From Candidatus Lloydbacteria bacterium RIFCSPHIGHO2_02_FULL_50_18 (lineage in GTDB: Bacteria; Patescibacteriota; Minisyncoccia; Phycocordibacterales; UBA6899): a stretch of DNA of 64,000 nucleotides. The translations under genes and the position numbers were made by a program. The notes beneath the pieces were generated by a model. The model worked only from the letters and a program-made list of their open reading frames with translations, was not told the DNA's origin and did not search any database. Each line of letters starts with the position of its first letter. Position 1 is the first letter of the stretch. Below, one piece after another: positions 12,942 through 60,224 of the stretch. The stretch covers positions 64,001 to 128,000 of the forward strand of contig MHLM01000004.1 of NCBI GenBank assembly GCA_001821395.1. Direction: 5' to 3'.

Positions 12942-13012
12942 TGCGGGTTCGTCTAATGGTAGGACATCGCCCTCTGGAGGCGAGTATTGGGGTTCGAGTC
13001 CCTGACCCGCAG
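12942..13012 (+). tRNA. tRNA-Gln (anticodon CTG)
   Basis: U1:A72 acceptor stem TGCGGGT/ACCCGCA, D-arm GTCT..GGAC, anticodon stem TCGCC/GGCGA with loop CTCTGGA, T-loop TTCGAGT, and discriminator G. CCA is not encoded. Confidence 0.8.
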
Positions 13013-13018
13013 CAAATG

Positions 13019-13046
13019 AAAACACCCCTTTTAATGGGGGTGTTTT
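13019..13046 (+). terminator. Hairpin terminator after tRNA-Gln
   Basis: AAAACACCCC-ttttaa-TGGGGGTGTTTT. Confidence 0.6.
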
Positions 13047-13060
13047 CATTTGCGAGGAGA

Positions 13061-13082
13061 GGAAGCCATCTGCATGGCTTCC
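13061..13082. repeat. 22-bp perfect palindrome GGAAGCCATCTGCATGGCTTCC, copy 1, embedded in an inverted copy of the tRNA-Gln 3' half
   Basis: Identical 22-mer at 61685..61706. Flanked by TTTGCG and GGCAGGGACTCGAA, which match the reverse complement of the tRNA-Gln T-arm and acceptor 3' strand. Confidence 0.8.
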
Positions 13083-13165
13083 GGCAGGGACTCGAAGCCG
13101 TTCTCCCATATTTTCGAGACATTCTTATGTTGAGAAAATAGGAAACGGGTACTGACGCAGTAGGC

Positions 13166-13189
13166 GTCGAGATTCCCTGACCCGCAGCA
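13166..13189 (+). repeat. Direct repeat of the tRNA-Gln 3' end (16 nt exact: TCCCTGACCCGCAGCA), att-like
   Basis: Identical to 12999..13014. Located 160 bp downstream of the tRNA. Confidence 0.8.
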
Positions 13190-13236
13190 GCCGCACAAAA
13201 CCACTCTGTATGGAGTGGTTTTGTTTTGCGGTTGCT

Positions 13237-13255
13237 CGCGGGTCAGGGACTCGAA
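13237..13255 (-). repeat. Inverted copy of the tRNA-Gln 3' end (CGCGGGTCAGGGACTCGAA), forming a roughly 35-bp imperfect hairpin with 13174..13209
   Basis: Reverse complement of TTCGAGTCCCTGACCCGCG. Confidence 0.75.
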
Positions 13256-13303
13256 AGACGGAGGCGGTCTACGCCGCCACTTTCCTAAGTGCGGTGTCGC
13301 CGA

Positions 13304-13373
13304 GCGACATTGTTTTCTTATGAGTAAGCGAGTTAGAAAACAAGAAGTACTCTTGTGGTGCCGGGGTCGAGAG
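13304..13373 (-). repeat. Repeat family R1, copy 3 (reverse orientation), flanked by a 9-bp inverted repeat CCTAAGTGC/GCACTTAGG
   Basis: The reverse complement aligns with 2378..2445: TTTTCTTA..TTAGAAAA..AAGTACTCT..GTGGTGCCG. Confidence 0.65.
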
Positions 13374-13547
13374 CACTTAGGCTTTTGGCTGCCTTGCGCC
13401 AAAATATTTAGTGACTCGTGATCAAGTTTGACCCGTAGACATGTCGTGCTCTTATGATGCGCGTTCTTTTTTAAAAAATATTTTGAGAACAAAAAGAAGC
13501 CTATTTTGTGGTTAAAAAAACCGCAAGCCTTTACTTGCGGTGATATT

Positions 13548-13824
13548 TCAGGGAACACTAATGGTATTGCGGCCGAATGGCCACGACGTGCAGACATAAA
13601 GGGTTATACTTTTTCCTTGCGGCGAAGTTGCCGAGACAGTTAGGCGCGCCGAGTCGCCTCGTACACAACCAGACATGATAAGTATTGATTTGTCGATGAC
13701 TTTTATGTTCGTATAGCCGAACGGCTCGAGTGTCTGGTTGGCGATGTCATCATTTACAAAATAGCCCCGGGTGCCAAGCGCAAGTATCATCAACAATGTG
13801 AATGCTACGCCGATTTTGTGTAAC
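13548..13824 (-). CDS. Small secreted hypothetical protein (about 92 aa)
   Basis: A GAGGAGGG ribosome-binding site lies 8 nt upstream of ATG 13824. Signal peptide MLHKIGVAFTLLMILALG. A hairpin terminator is at 13521..13548. Confidence 0.4.
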
Positions 13825-14040
13825 ATAGACAAAACCCTCCTCGTGAACAAACCGCCATAAATAGTACACCAGTAGCTTTGAGAGTCAAGAATGATCAGAA
13901 AATGTAGCAAGTGCACCTAGTGCTCTTCGTATCAGATATATCGACACCAAGTCATCCGACCAAGGTGGGCTTGACTGACCACGGTTTTATCTAGGGTCGG
14001 CCAGCTTTTAAAAACAGAAAAGCGGTATAATTCAGAGTAT

Positions 14041-14394
14041 ATGAATATTTCTAAGAAAAAATTTGTTGCCCTCTTCCTCATTTCTGCGTTTGCCTTTCAA
14101 TTCATCTCCAACTCACTTTTTGGGTCAGACGTTCGACTCTTTCCTCAGAAAGGGGAGTCTTTGTTGGGGACGGATCCACAAATAGGCTGGAAGAGTGCCG
14201 GATACAAAATTCAATTGCCTATCAAAATTGTTTTGATGGGACCCATGCTGCTTTCTACTGATTTTTTGCGAGATGATCCACCACCTCCATTTGTTGCCGC
14301 TGTATTTGCTCTCTACTGGTCGATCCTTGCCTTATTTATTTACTATCTTATCGGTATTATAAGTAGAAGACATCCTCTATGTGTTTCTGCTTGA
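14041..14394 (+). CDS. Hypothetical membrane or secreted protein
   Basis: N-terminal hydrophobic segment plus a C-terminal TM. AT-rich. No homology recognised. Confidence 0.3.
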
Positions 14395-14548
14395 GTGCTT
14401 GGGTAATTTTGTGAGCAAGGAGGAGAGATGGGTTATATCTGTTTTGTTCAAGCGAAATAATTGTTTGTCTGGTTACTCCTGCAAGTTCAGCAAGTTTTTC
14501 TTGCGTAAGGTTTAATTTATTTCGATAAAGAGCAATGTTTGTTTCCAT
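14357..14548 (-). CDS. XRE-family helix-turn-helix transcriptional regulator (63 aa)
   Basis: [35 protein letters not shown] is a classic Cro/C1 HTH. Confidence 0.8.
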
Positions 14549-14550
14549 TT

Positions 14551-14979
14551 TTAATTTTTCTTATCTAAATAGAAATTTGAAGCGGCTTTAACGATAGTAC
14601 CAACGATGAGAGCTAATAAGATCACCGGATCAACTCTCGTGATCTCGTTTACAACAATGCCTGCGGCAATCTGATAACCGATGCCTGCGGTGAGCACTAC
14701 TAAGATAGCCCAAAGGGCATTTCGCTCAGAGATCGCTTCGTGTATTATATCCCGCTCGTCTTTCGGCACATGAACCATCATAGCTATGAAATCGATACCA
14801 AAAACGATCGCCCACAATGAGAGCAATACTACTTGCGTTGACCCAATGACATTCATTTCAGTTATGACAATTATCGGCAGTATCATAACGACAATATATG
14901 CCCAGCCTTGCCAAGTAGAAGGTGTCAGCCCCCAGCCCGTATACTTTCTTCTTTTGAACCACTCCGGTTTTGCGATCAT
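14551..14979 (-). CDS. DUF2178-like membrane protein, partner of the XRE regulator
   Basis: Four TMs. Abuts the small HTH gene, a common HTH plus DUF2178 pairing. The start is taken at the internal Met MIAKPEWF. Confidence 0.45.
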
Positions 14980-15278
14980 ATAATTATGTTTATTACTAAT
15001 GTAATATATACTATACGTAAAATATATATTACACAAGCGCTATTGCGGATAACTTGCATTACGGGTAAAAGTTTCACTGCGGATATTGAATGCTAAGTCA
15101 GGAGATCGTTTTGGGCGGTCTTCCGGGGTGCCTCTTCGTGAGACCCTGAAAGGTAGTTTGTAGGGCAATGCGTCGTCTTCACTCCATCTTTTTCGCCTCT
15201 AATATTTATGCTTCTTCTAACTTAAATAGGTTCCAGTTTGTTCCTGACGCGCAGTATTTTTTTTGGTATGCTCATTTT

Positions 15279-15605
15279 ATGAAGATAGTAAATCCAAGAG
15301 TCGTCCCTGATGTAGCTCAAAAATATATCATCGCCAAGATTTTCAATAGCGATGAACTTCTGCTTTGGGGCGATCCAGAAATCGAATGGCATAAGGACAT
15401 TGCAGAAGAAATGGGTGACGCAGGCCTCGTTGTTGAATGGGTAAGGGGAGGAGGAAGATTGAAATTCGTGACTGATTCGAAAACTATTTATGTCTGGGGT
15501 AAAAGTAGTATGTATGGAGCCGCGTCATTTCGGGAAGCGAAGAACATTTTGAGGATCGCTTATTCTGACTATGACATTCTTAATGAGATCCCTCCAGAAG
15601 AATAG
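15279..15605 (+). CDS. Hypothetical protein
   Basis: ORF only. The start is ambiguous (15168 or 15279). Confidence 0.3.
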   Translation: MKIVNPRVVPDVAQKYIIAKIFNSDELLLWGDPEIEWHKDIAEEMGDAGLVVEWVRGGGRLKFVTDSKTIYVWGKSSMYGAASFREAKNILRIAYSDYDILNEIPPEE

Positions 15606-15684
15606 TTCCAACGTCGTCCCCTGCATCTAATTTGATAAATGCGCTAATCTTGCTGATTGGCATTTTTTAAAGCCAATGTCTGTT

Positions 15685-15990
15685 TTATGAAAAATCTCGT
15701 TTCCCTTCCCAGGGGATACCCCCGTAGTCCAATAATAGTTCTTCACCAGATCGAATATCTCTTGAGGAGATAAAATAAAATTTATCTCCATTTTGTAACA
15801 GCCCTATGTTGGGATCTTGTGAATGATTTATTTTCTCTCCGAGGCTCGTTCTCGCATAATCCACATCAGGATTTCCCGTGGTGCTAATTCTTTTGAATCC
15901 TAACCCGATATTCTCACCGCAGACGATATTATCTCTAGTGAAAACTCCATGCCCCGCAATATTTGATCCCTTTATTTCGAGGTTGACCAT
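15685..15990 (-). CDS. SET-domain protein (putative protein lysine methyltransferase), 101 aa
   Basis: NHSQDPN (an NHSCxPN-like motif) and ELLLDYG (an ELxxDY motif). Confidence 0.65.
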   Translation of the reverse strand: MVNLEIKGSNIAGHGVFTRDNIVCGENIGLGFKRISTTGNPDVDYARTSLGEKINHSQDPNIGLLQNGDKFYFISSRDIRSGEELLLDYGGIPWEGKRDFS

Positions 15991-16020
15991 TGCTTTGATT
16001 ATAGCTTTTTGTTAATTTCC

Positions 16021-16506
16021 TCATCGTCTCCATCCCGCATCATCGAATCGTGCGCCATCTCCGTTGAGGTATTTTTGCATCATTTCCTTTGCTGGCCCTC
16101 GGCGCACCCATGCATCATTGACTCCCGTCATGTCGACAAGAATACCTGCAGTGATGATTGCAACAATGAATCCCGCGATGATGATCTTGAAATCTATCTT
16201 GTAGGAAAAATCATAGCGTCGGAGCAACCATATTCCGAGAACGAGTCCGAGTATCGCAAATACGGGCGCCCACCACGGGAAACTCGAAAGAAATTGCTCA
16301 AGGCGATATTCTCCCATTGGTCCGTGCGACCGAGAAAGAAAACGCAGTAATCCAAAAAGGAAAACTGAGACAACTATTGAAGAGACCAACCCCAAGAAGG
16401 TGAGTAGTGATCCGAGAATAAAGTATATCTTTGGGCGGGGTTTTATCTGCTCACCATGGATCTTTCCCATGATGGTGTCGGTGATGTTGTTTAATTCTTT
16501 TGACAT
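16021..16506 (-). CDS. Putative anti-sigma factor or membrane protein cotranscribed with the ECF sigma
   Basis: Overlaps the sigma gene by 16 nt. Has a cytoplasmic N-terminus followed by 3-4 TMs. Confidence 0.4.
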   Translation of the reverse strand: MSKELNNITDTIMGKIHGEQIKPRPKIYFILGSLLTFLGLVSSIVVSVFLFGLLRFLSRSHGPMGEYRLEQFLSSFPWWAPVFAILGLVLGIWLLRRYDFSYKIDFKIIIAGFIVAIITAGILVDMTGVNDAWVRRGPAKEMMQKYLNGDGARFDDAGWRR

Positions 16507-17033
16507 AAGTGTTTCATTAAGGCTTTTGCGCGACTTACGCGCGTCGCAACGGTACCCATTGGTATGCGCAGGATGTCGCTGATCTCTGCATACGACTTCT
16601 CTTCTATATAATACAACGTGAGCGGTTCAGCGTAGAGGAGGGGTATCTGTTCGAGGCACTTCGTCACCATCTCCACTGTTTCTTTTTGCTCGAATTCCTT
16701 TTCGATGTCTTCATCACTTACAAAATCCGCAGTATCCAAGAGAGGGACTTCACTCGGATATTTTTTGATGATGTTGAGTGCCACATTATGTGCAATACGA
16801 TATATCCAGCTCGAAAATTTCTTTTTTACGTCAAAACCGTTGAGATTGATGTACGCGTTAATGAAGGCTTCCTGGACGACGTCGGTCGCCATGTGTTCAT
16901 CCTTGATGAGGTGAGTGACGTAGCGGAGTAGTTTGTGTTGATATCGCTCAATGAGTATAGCGTAAAGATCCCGATCAGTTGATCGAACTTTTTCAACTAT
17001 TGCTTCATCTGAAAGTTTTTCGTTCTCGTCCAT
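16491..17033 (-). CDS. RNA polymerase sigma-70 factor, ECF subfamily
   Basis: Region 2 (DVVQEAFINAY) and a region 4 HTH (SYAEISDILRIPMGTVATRVSRA). Confidence 0.85.
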   Translation of the reverse strand: MDENEKLSDEAIVEKVRSTDRDLYAILIERYQHKLLRYVTHLIKDEHMATDVVQEAFINAYINLNGFDVKKKFSSWIYRIAHNVALNIIKKYPSEVPLLDTADFVSDEDIEKEFEQKETVEMVTKCLEQIPLLYAEPLTLYYIEEKSYAEISDILRIPMGTVATRVSRAKALMKHLCQKN

Positions 17034-29644: not shown

Positions 29645-29980
29645 ATGGCAGCAAAAAAAGTAGCAGCAAAAAAGGCAGTCGCTAAAAAAGCAGTAGCAAA
29701 AAAGGCGGTCGCAAAGAAACCTGCAGCAAAAAAGGTCAATTCCGCATTTATGAAACCAATGACGATCAGCGCCGAGCTTGCTCTTGTCGTCGGAAAAGGT
29801 CCGATGCCTCGTTCAGAGGTCGTGAAGAAGCTCTGGGTTTATATCAAGAAGCATGATCTTCAGGATGCAAAAAATAAGCGCAATATCAACGGCGATGCGG
29901 CATTGGTTGCGGTATTCGGCGGAAAGAAGACCGTCAACATGTTTGAAATGACGAAGCTTGTGTCGAAACATCTTTCATAA
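29645..29980 (+). CDS. SWIB/MDM2-domain protein with an N-terminal Lys/Ala-rich histone-H1-like tail
   Basis: AAKKAVAKK repeats followed by ...ELALVVGKGPMPRSEVVKKLWVYIKKHDLQDAKNKRNINGD...MFEMTKLVSKHL. Confidence 0.75.
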   Translation: MAAKKVAAKKAVAKKAVAKKAVAKKPAAKKVNSAFMKPMTISAELALVVGKGPMPRSEVVKKLWVYIKKHDLQDAKNKRNINGDAALVAVFGGKKTVNMFEMTKLVSKHLS

Positions 29981-59777: not shown

Positions 59778-60224
59778 ATGATCGAACTACGCAAAGAAAC
59801 GAATGCACAGTATAAGCTGAAAGTCGGCCGCTCAAAGACGGGCTTGGGTCTCTATGCATTGGAGCCGATCCCAAAGGGGAAAAAGATCATCGAATATGTC
59901 GGCAAGATCATGACCGATGAATCCGACGACGACAAGAACAGTTTATATATTTTCAATATCAATAAGAAAGTCGACATTGACGGAGCGCCCCGCTTTAATA
60001 TCGCACGTTATATCAACCATTCATGCCGACCAAATGCCGAAAGCGACACCTACAAGGATCATGTATGGATAAAGTCGAAGCGGAACATCATGCTCGGCGA
60101 AGAGATCACCTATGACTACGGCAAGGAGTACTGGAATGAATACATCAAGCCGAAGGGCTGCCGTTGTGAGAAGTGCACCGAAAAGAAGCTGAAACCCTTG
60201 TCCACCAAAGAAAAACGTCAGTAG
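59778..60224 (+). CDS. SET-domain protein with a post-SET Cys cluster
   Basis: NHSCRPN, EEITYDYG and a C-terminal CRCEKC. Confidence 0.75.
   Translation: MIELRKETNAQYKLKVGRSKTGLGLYALEPIPKGKKIIEYVGKIMTDESDDDKNSLYIFNINKKVDIDGAPRFNIARYINHSCRPNAESDTYKDHVWIKSKRNIMLGEEITYDYGKEYWNEYIKPKGCRCEKCTEKKLKPLSTKEKRQ

Follow-up and report, generated by a model that had tools for sequence, protein, structure and literature searches.

SET101, a compact SET-domain protein encoded by a Candidatus Lloydbacteria genome, as a putative protein-lysine methyltransferase

Does a polypeptide of only 101 amino acids still qualify as a SET-domain enzyme, and what would such an enzyme modify in a histone-free bacterium? 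Both questions are raised by SET101, whose gene occupies positions 15685 to 15990 (stop codon included) on the minus strand of a 64,000-nucleotide stretch of contig MHLM01000004.1, referred to here as the window. The contig belongs to a groundwater metagenome-assembled genome (MAG) of Candidatus Lloydbacteria, a Parcubacteria lineage of the Candidate Phyla Radiation (CPR). A preliminary description of the same DNA had noted this open reading frame (ORF) together with a second SET protein, termed SET148 below, and a SWIB protein within the same 64 kb, and had proposed that the three form a chromatin-like protein modification module. Our analysis leaves the SET-domain assignment of SET101 secure but leads to a different view of its role. 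We consider it probable that SET101 is a stand-alone cytoplasmic methyltransferase dependent on S-adenosylmethionine (AdoMet), acting most likely on lysines of an endogenous protein, perhaps as part of a response governed by a sigma factor.

SET101 is a conserved gene encoding a SET domain

The gene begins with ATG, and its coordinates and length are exactly those of the preliminary description. Reading upstream from the ATG gives an in-frame TAA after 9 codons and no other start codon on the way, and 101 residues is therefore the maximum length of the protein. Four full-length homologues of 101-102 residues were identified, sharing 72-79% identity with SET101. Ratios of nonsynonymous to synonymous substitution rates (dN/dS), estimated by the Nei-Gojobori method, were 0.11-0.18 for SET101 against three of the homologues and 0.11-0.26 over all pairs, at dS values of 0.6-1.5, and the reading frame is clearly under purifying selection. 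Two short ORFs in other frames over the gene (15627-15791, minus strand, and 15878-16015, plus strand) were taken as spurious because they lie inside this selected frame. A protein identical to SET101 occurs on 24 metagenome contigs, one of which is 176 kb long. Judged by eye, the sequence has no N-terminal signal peptide. The protein is public as OGZ06078.1 and OGZ09979.1, UniRef100_A0A1G2D002 is already titled 'SET domain-containing protein', and NCBI applies the homology-based name 'SET domain-containing protein-lysine N-methyltransferase' to its relatives. SET101 is a genuine conserved gene, and a further case of SET proteins that were already recognised and labelled as such in the databases.

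The preliminary description had named two checks on its SET assignment, a profile search with PF00856 and a structure prediction, and both bear it out. In the Pfam search SET101 scored 36.8 bits (E 5.4e-9) against the SET family PF00856, above the gathering cut-off of 22.4, and the relatives that were tested scored 27-47 bits. The alignment covers only residues 52-90 of SET101, which fall on model positions 63-105, the C-terminal part of the family. The PR domain model PRDM2_PR gave a weak match below the Pfam cut-off, and a search of NCBIfam returned no matches. A phmmer search of the sequences in the Protein Data Bank (PDB) matched Cryptosporidium SET8, KMT5A/SET8 and G9a, as well as vSET, which aligned with residues 6-95 of SET101, and a profile built from 60 family members matched PDB chains of MLL, Set7, vSET, SET8 and EZH2 at E values from 2e-13 to 1e-7. 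An AlphaFold2 run on five close sequences only was unusable, with a predicted local distance difference test (pLDDT) score of 43; the rerun with 60 diverse sequences gave a model with pLDDT 90.6 and a predicted template modelling score (pTM) of 0.80. Fold searches with this model retrieved solved SET structures, and the predicted fold has the beta-rich core of that family.

Conservation was followed in four alignments: A1, of close homologues; A2, of the 60 diverse members; and A3 and A5, two further alignments of the family. Motif I of the SET domain (GxG) is formed by codons G13-H14-G15 (15946-15954, minus strand), and its role as an AdoMet-binding turn is suggested by established SET structures. 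Neither G13 nor G15 varies in A1, A3 or A5, and in A2 their conservation is 90% or more; in the profile alignment this stretch pairs with 'IHGRGLF' of MLL1. Motif III (NHS..PN), located with a regular expression in a six-frame scan, comprises codons N55-H56-S57-Q-D-P-N61 (15808-15828, minus strand); N55, H56 and N61 are near-invariant in A2, and the stretch pairs with 'INHS' of SET8, MLL and Cryptosporidium SET8. Motif IV comprises codons E84-L-L-L87-D-Y89-G90 (15721-15741, minus strand), with E84 and Y89 near-invariant in A2. Its ELLLDYG pairs with ELLYDYG of SET8/KMT5A, which places Y89 as the catalytic tyrosine and Leu87 at the position of the Phe/Tyr switch. Conservation over the 60 diverse members is 90% or more at S9, G13, G15, F17, G29, N55, H56, N61, E84 and Y89, so that three of the SET signature motifs are covered and the residues for AdoMet binding and the catalytic tyrosine are in place. 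The NHS.DPN and EL.LDYG core remarked on in the preliminary description is present in full, and the loss of the catalytic tyrosine and histidine on alignment, which it had named as one of two findings that would speak against a SET protein, was not seen, as H56 and Y89 are both retained.

Other parts of the domain are reduced or replaced. Where canonical enzymes have SET-N and SET-C joined by a SET-I insert of normal size, SET101 has the subfamily-specific segment T38-G-N-P-D-V-D-Y45 (15856-15879, minus strand). Within A5 this segment shows no variation at G39, D42 and D44 and conservation of 90% or more at P41; the AlphaFold2 model places a short helix at residues 41-44. The insert is about 17 residues shorter than that of SET148 and is short relative to MLL as well, and HMMER aligns the two halves of the domain, N- and C-terminal, with MLL as separate stretches that overlap. 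The Cys-rich post-SET region, with its CxCxxxxC-type zinc site, is missing, the sole cysteine of SET101 being C24. In its place stands a C-terminal tail motif, W94-E-G-K-R-D-F100 (15691-15711, minus strand), within the terminal sequence IPWEGKRDFS; the form typical of the subfamily is (I/F)PWEGKRDF. Residues W94 to F100 are invariant in A1 except for E95, which is D in the homologue P0004; A5 has no variation at G96 and conservation of 90% or more at W94, K97 and F100. Residues 91-100 are modelled at lower confidence, with a mean pLDDT of 67.

Might so reduced a protein be a catalytically dead SET- or PR-like binding module, or a decaying remnant? Its very small size, the partial Pfam coverage and the sub-threshold PRDM2_PR match would fit such a protein, as would the lack of an evident counterpart of the canonical N-terminal active-site tyrosine. 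However, the cofactor and catalytic motifs are near-invariant in 60 relatives, the dN/dS values are low throughout, length is conserved and the fold is predicted with confidence, and we regard loss of activity as extremely unlikely.

Putative activity of the reduced active site

If SET101 acts as its motifs suggest, AdoMet would be held between the GxG turn, the NH motif and the C-terminal segment, and the substrate lysine would come in from the opposite side through a narrow channel. Y89 would then align and deprotonate the lysine epsilon-amine for SN2 transfer of the methyl group. Leu87 has no hydroxyl at the switch position, and the addition of more than a single methyl group may therefore be possible; structures of the SET8 Y334F variant titled 'lysine multiple methylation' are among the fold matches of SET101. 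With SET-I cut down to the roughly 8-residue TGNPDxDY segment and the post-SET region exchanged for the WEGKRDF tail, the substrate groove would be minimal. The tail may close the cofactor or lysine pocket, by analogy with the C-terminal segments of other SET proteins, and the groove might be completed by dimerisation, as in the 119-residue vSET.

Transfer to protein lysines appears the most likely activity. SET enzymes do not all act on this target, and SET101 could instead modify a small molecule, as BurB does with methionine, or another residue, as SETD3 does with histidine. Yet its best matches in both structure and sequence are the protein-lysine enzymes EZH2, G9a, vSET, MLL and SET8, we found no biosynthetic genes near SET101, and members of the wider family are fused to GNAT and other domains that modify macromolecules. 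A target other than protein lysine therefore seems very unlikely.

Genomic setting and the choice of substrate

The genes immediately upstream of SET101 suggest where a substrate might be sought. A sigma factor of the extracytoplasmic function (ECF) type, with Pfam matches to Sigma70_r2 and Sigma70_r4_2, is encoded at 16491-17033 on the minus strand and is the only ECF sigma factor detectable in the window. It is followed, with an overlap of 16 nucleotides, by the gene for a 161-residue multi-pass membrane protein (16021-16506, minus strand), a possible anti-sigma factor with no Pfam family above cut-off, which ends 30 nucleotides upstream of SET101. In a simple scan the sole promoter-like site of the three genes lay upstream of the sigma gene (17068-17040, minus strand), and no terminator-like site was found between the membrane protein gene and SET101. 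Co-transcription of SET101 with the two genes, as the last member of a unit that begins with the sigma factor, is plausible on this arrangement. Since SET101 is chromosomal and vertically inherited, and is probably co-transcribed with an ECF sigma factor, we would expect its target to be an endogenous bacterial protein, perhaps one acting in the response that this sigma factor controls.

The sigma pair was found again at some of the more distant loci. Compact SET genes whose products are 47-53% identical were examined at loci L020, L021/L027, L022, L025, L026, L028 and L029. Within about 1 kb of the compact SET gene, L020 and L021 each encode an ECF sigma factor together with a small membrane protein. 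The pair is divergent from the SET gene in L020 (3767-4871), and in L021 (5992-6931) it is convergent with that gene and two genes away. The lineages that have the pair are only about 50% identical in their SET proteins, and the relative orientation differs each time. Counting the window and its close relative L011 as one, 3 of 9 lineages have an ECF sigma factor next to the compact SET gene (p ~0.01, on the assumption of a chance of about 5% per locus, from one sigma factor in 64 kb, and with shared ancestry ignored). Because the p value takes no account of that ancestry, the link between compact SET proteins and ECF sigma factors is suggestive rather than established.

Two closer loci bear on the history of the gene. 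A scan of GTDB genomes yielded a single locus, L007, from a MAG labelled Saccharibacteria, whose SET protein is 72% identical to SET101. A tRNA-Gln(ctg) gene stands there in convergent orientation 62 nucleotides after the SET gene and is followed by a putative EEP-like gene (read from its translation), pyrG, ftsX and ftsE. The window has the same order, with ftsE at about 2.6 kb, pyrG at 5.3 kb, tRNA-Gln(ctg) at 12.9 kb (12942-13013) and SET101 at 15.7 kb. This shared gene order implies that SET101 stands at an ancestral chromosomal position, and points to long vertical residence in the chromosome. The 2.7 kb that separate tRNA-Gln from SET101 in the window could be either an insertion there or a deletion in L007. 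A region of low GC content (0.36-0.47, against about 0.50 for the window) extends from about 13.6 to 18.4 kb and begins near the tRNA gene. Recent horizontal acquisition of SET101 by way of this patch was considered, but the position shared with L007 makes it less likely.

In the second locus, L011, where the SET protein is 78% identical, the membrane protein gene, the same 30-nucleotide spacer, the SET gene and the Ocnus gene that follows it in the window are all kept, and the loci differ beyond them. Nucleotide identity with the window is 93-100% across the membrane protein gene and spacer; with the 60-nucleotide bin in which the SET start codon lies it falls to 73-92%, and it stays in that range through the Ocnus gene. 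Judging by this break (window 15980-16040, L011 460-540), a recombination breakpoint appears to lie at the 5' end of the SET101 gene.

The proposal of a chromatin-like module was examined next to this evidence. Both of the other genes on which it rests are real: SET148 (148 residues; 59778-60224, plus strand) matches PF00856 over its full length with 82.7 bits, and the 111-residue SWIB protein (29645-29980, plus strand) matches PF02201 with 97.8 bits. Under that proposal SET101, together with SET148, would methylate Lys-rich nucleoid proteins such as the AKK-tailed SWIB protein, in a bacterial chromatin-modification system. The N-terminus of the SWIB protein does carry an (A/V)AKK repeat, with a weak match to the histone H1-like family HC2 (25.1 bits, below the 40-bit cut-off), and there is precedent for such substrates: cpnSET, which binds both Hc1 and Hc2, methylates the H1-like Hc1, and the archaeal Go1-SET methylates MC1-alpha (PMC3980110). 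That one small genome should hold two SET genes is also in keeping with the proposal, and at locus L008 a second SET gene lies about 8 kb from the compact one, the only such case among the loci examined.

Physical linkage or conserved co-location of the three genes was, however, not found. SWIB lies 14 kb and SET148 44 kb from SET101, each among unrelated genes; the SWIB gene directly precedes repair genes of the MGMT type (DNA_binding_1) and the DNA_alkylation type, and the neighbours of SET148 are DPBB/LysM and hydrolase genes. In none of the homologous loci checked through gene tables or ORF lists (L007, L008, L011, L020, L021, L022 and L025-L029) does a SWIB gene stand beside the compact SET gene. 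Compact SET proteins are moreover abundant in phages and in proteins of the polyvalent type, where a SWIB partner is not evident. SET148 has a Lys-rich tail and a post-SET-like CRCEKC motif. Over 62 residues it shares only about 35% identity with SET101, and so the two are neither a duplicated pair nor recent paralogues. The module as a unit is not borne out by these observations, and we judge a chromatin-modification system in which SET101 methylates Lys-rich nucleoid proteins to be unlikely.

The same searches show that the view of bacterial SET proteins as uncommon, also expressed in the preliminary description, was overstated. In a set of 1.84 billion cluster representatives (50%-identity clusters), a profile of five close sequences matched 1148 at E<=1e-3, of which 115 were at E<=1e-10, and there are the relatives already named by NCBI. 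Among the best 150 members 69 are stand-alone proteins of at most 135 residues. A second, word-indexed protein search with the 60-sequence profile gave only 18 proteins. Lengths are 100-102 residues in the closest relatives and about 100-116 in other lineages, and members were found in CPR bacteria, cultured marine phages and giant viruses. Searches of cultured-phage genomes with tblastn found homologues of 99-102 residues, 33-38% identical over 85% of the length, in Prochlorococcus phage P-SSM7 (PSSM7_204; L013 3977-4276), Pelagibacter phage Kolga (gp27; L012 3968-4276) and Prochlorococcus phage P-RSM6. All three are annotated 'hypothetical protein'; the two that were tested, Kolga gp27 and PSSM7_204, pass the Pfam SET threshold at 40-42 bits. 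The phage proteins make up PHROG 28741, listed under 'unknown function', whose profile matches residues 4-89 of SET101 at E 6e-9.

Longer proteins also contain the domain; 64 large relatives were covered by an alignment of 47 of them and by direct scans. Fusions to GNAT acetyltransferases recur, for example in 6 of the 47 mid-size members, and proteins of 1000-2000 residues with a compact SET domain include P0066, P0029, P0115, P0088, P0082 and P0033 (see also L014 10001-14536). Their partner domains comprise ART-PolyVal, PARP-like, NUDIX, SNF2 helicase, LigD_N, topoisomerase IB, 2H/LigT/Acb1-like, M23/M15 peptidase, YkuD and transglutaminase. Many of these are domain types of which polyvalent proteins of phages and conjugative elements are composed; of the giant proteins, P0033 is the one whose genomic context was checked. 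P0033 (1511 residues), with GNAT, DUF5661 and a pair of SET domains, is encoded on an 80-kb phage-like contig from an ANAN16 metagenome, and P0165, which is 40% identical to SET101, is likewise on a phage-like contig. Tandem SET stretches occur in P0118 (799 residues, eight stretches) and P0076 (1449 residues, five), and such arrays within one polypeptide are unusual. SET goes unmentioned in the main text of a polyvalent-protein survey from 2017 (PMC5512222), and a literature search for SET domains in CPR bacteria, phages or polyvalent proteins found nothing specific.

This distribution makes a conflict-related role plausible for the family. SET101 itself could then be a domesticated or resident effector of phage or mobile-element origin that methylates and disables proteins of an attacked cell, the host of the episymbiont being one possible target. 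The phage homologues of PHROG 28741, the phage-like contigs of P0165 and the GNAT/SET protein P0033, and the occurrence of the module in giant polyvalent-type proteins all agree with such an origin, as do the low-GC patch beside a tRNA gene and the apparent breakpoint at the SET101 start codon. The viral enzyme vSET, which is packaged in the virion and acts on host chromatin, offers a parallel (PMC7019647). Against this, searches of Pfam, PADLOC and PHROGs found no integrase, phage-structural or defence gene around SET101, an IMG/VR scan with patterns from A1 found no close relative, and the protein has no recognisable signal peptide. The position near tRNA-Gln, pyrG and ftsEX, kept in L007 at 72% SET identity, argues that SET101 itself is a resident gene, and we assign the effector role no more than a small probability.

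The proposal that we favour, a resident methyltransferase acting on an endogenous protein, has several points to its disadvantage. The N-terminal half of the domain is assigned through the family profile and the predicted structure, Pfam covering the C-terminal 39 residues. The active-site tyrosine that canonical SET domains draw from their N-terminal region, which we take to be Tyr245 in SET8, has no clear counterpart in SET101, where Y45 is only moderately conserved. The sigma pair is missing from 6 of the 9 lineages, and the drop in identity at the SET start codon implies that SET101 and the sigma pair do not share a single history. Finally, many relatives are borne by phages, which lends a conflict-related role of SET101 some small likelihood.

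One proposal would bring the two roles together. The compact SET domain with TGNPDxDY and WEGKRDF may be an uncharacterised effector of conflict and signalling, whose phage, giant-protein and GNAT-fusion copies methylate bacterial proteins and whose CPR copy was recruited to an ECF sigma/anti-sigma circuit. We offer this as a speculative and rather improbable scheme. Were it to hold, SET101 would be a lysine-methylation switch whose target is the machinery of transcription or envelope stress, or else the host of the CPR cell, and not chromatin.

The remaining neighbours of SET101 add little to these arguments. A Janus/Ocnus (PHPT1-like) protein is encoded at 15168-15605 on the plus strand (PF05005, 48.2 bits), convergent with SET101 and in a separate transcription unit. 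Judged by eye, there is a likeness between its segment 'EIEWHKDIAEEM' and the stretch around the catalytic His of human PHPT1. The 145-residue Ocnus ORF may start too early, as the L011 version is called as 108 residues. The pairing of SET and Ocnus genes occurs only in the window and L011 and is absent from L007, L008, L020 and L021; a conserved functional pair was rejected, since it is confined to these two close relatives and the genes are convergent. The small hypothetical genes at 13014-15684 include, besides Ocnus, an XRE-type helix-turn-helix (HTH) protein (14357-14548) and an adjoining 142-residue membrane protein. PADLOC gave only generic HTH matches, for a 63-residue regulator, when run on SET101 and its neighbours, and for want of a specific match a defence island was dropped from consideration. 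PHROGs likewise gave only generic sigma and HTH matches for the neighbours, with no evidence of a prophage. The Rfam scan of the window found only two tRNAs.

Elsewhere, two loci show signs of mobile elements close to the compact SET gene. In L008, whose SET protein (P0004) is 72% identical to SET101, the neighbours are unrelated to those of the window. They include the second SET gene mentioned above (L008 1-188; 141 residues, cut by the end of the locus), 8 kb upstream of the compact one, and a Y1 (IS200-like) transposase (L008 10958-11599), 2.6 kb downstream. In L022 (1-5351; Chitinophagales MAG contig JAIXLO010000160.1) a compact SET gene of 116 codons begins 2 nucleotides after an ORF of 679 residues with faint LAGLIDADG and N6_N4-methylase matches, and also follows two LAGLIDADG_2 ORFs. 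These neighbours suggest that, outside the CPR, this gene belongs to a mobile or selfish element.

For the window as such SET101 is of small import, being readily recognisable and already labelled in UniRef. The interest lies in its extreme compactness, in the unannotated presence of such domains in phages and polyvalent-type proteins, and in the question of what SET enzymes target in histone-free bacteria. At 96-105 residues the compact subfamily is shorter than vSET, the smallest histone methyltransferase of the literature, and could therefore serve as a minimal scaffold for the study or engineering of SET catalysis. The occurrence in 'hypothetical' phage proteins, GNAT fusions and polyvalent-type giants hints at lysine methylation in conflicts between phages and bacteria. 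To our knowledge, hardly anything has been established about what SET enzymes modify in bacteria that are free-living or episymbiotic, and a defined substrate would thus be new biology.

Comparison with known SET enzymes and polyvalent proteins

Among characterised proteins vSET (A612L of PBCV-1, 119 residues; PDB 1n3j and 3kma) comes closest to SET101. Both consist of a single SET domain with a very short SET-I and neither pre-SET nor Cys-rich post-SET regions, and they have in common GxG, NHS.DPN and E(E/L)xxxY. It is the best Foldseek match to SET101 in the PDB (E 1.4e-6, TM-score 0.69), and the family profile aligns with it over nearly its whole length (positions 7-100 to residues 3-110, E 8.5e-11). 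Viral enzymes of the vSET type are obligate homodimers, are specific for histone H3K27 and are packaged in the virion. The last of these features is inapplicable to SET101, as its gene is on a bacterial chromosome. vSET has been called 'the smallest histone methyl-transferase', and acts early in infection (PMC7019647). A 100-residue 'SET domain protein' of Marseillevirus LCMAC101, from the BFVD database, resembles the SET101 model at a TM-score of 0.82. In general the compact SET proteins of phages and giant viruses are like SET101 in size (99-102 residues) and motifs; those of phages are on virus genomes and lack the TGNPDxDY and WEGKRDF segments typical of the CPR clade.

Larger SET enzymes differ more. 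SET8/KMT5A and MLL act on nucleosomes and, unlike SET101, have a full SET-I and flanking helices, and the switch position is Tyr in SET8 and Leu87 in SET101. SET148, judged by its domain layout of a full-length Pfam match and a CxCxxC tail, looks the more conventional bacterial SET protein of the window. The cpnSET of Chlamydophila and the Go1-SET of Methanosarcina resemble the present case in that a SET enzyme and a Lys-rich nucleoid-type protein occur in the same prokaryote; their DNA-binding substrates are known, however, whereas SET101 has no genomic link to the AKK-tailed SWIB protein. In size, too, cpnSET is distinct, with motifs at positions 123 and 208 (PMC3980110) that make it at least twice as long as SET101. 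Polyvalent proteins, as described by Iyer et al. (2017), carry several unrelated effector domains in one polypeptide and belong to mobile elements; the versions of the SET101 domain that occur in such proteins are distant relatives. SET101, in contrast, is a single-domain protein encoded in the chromosome.

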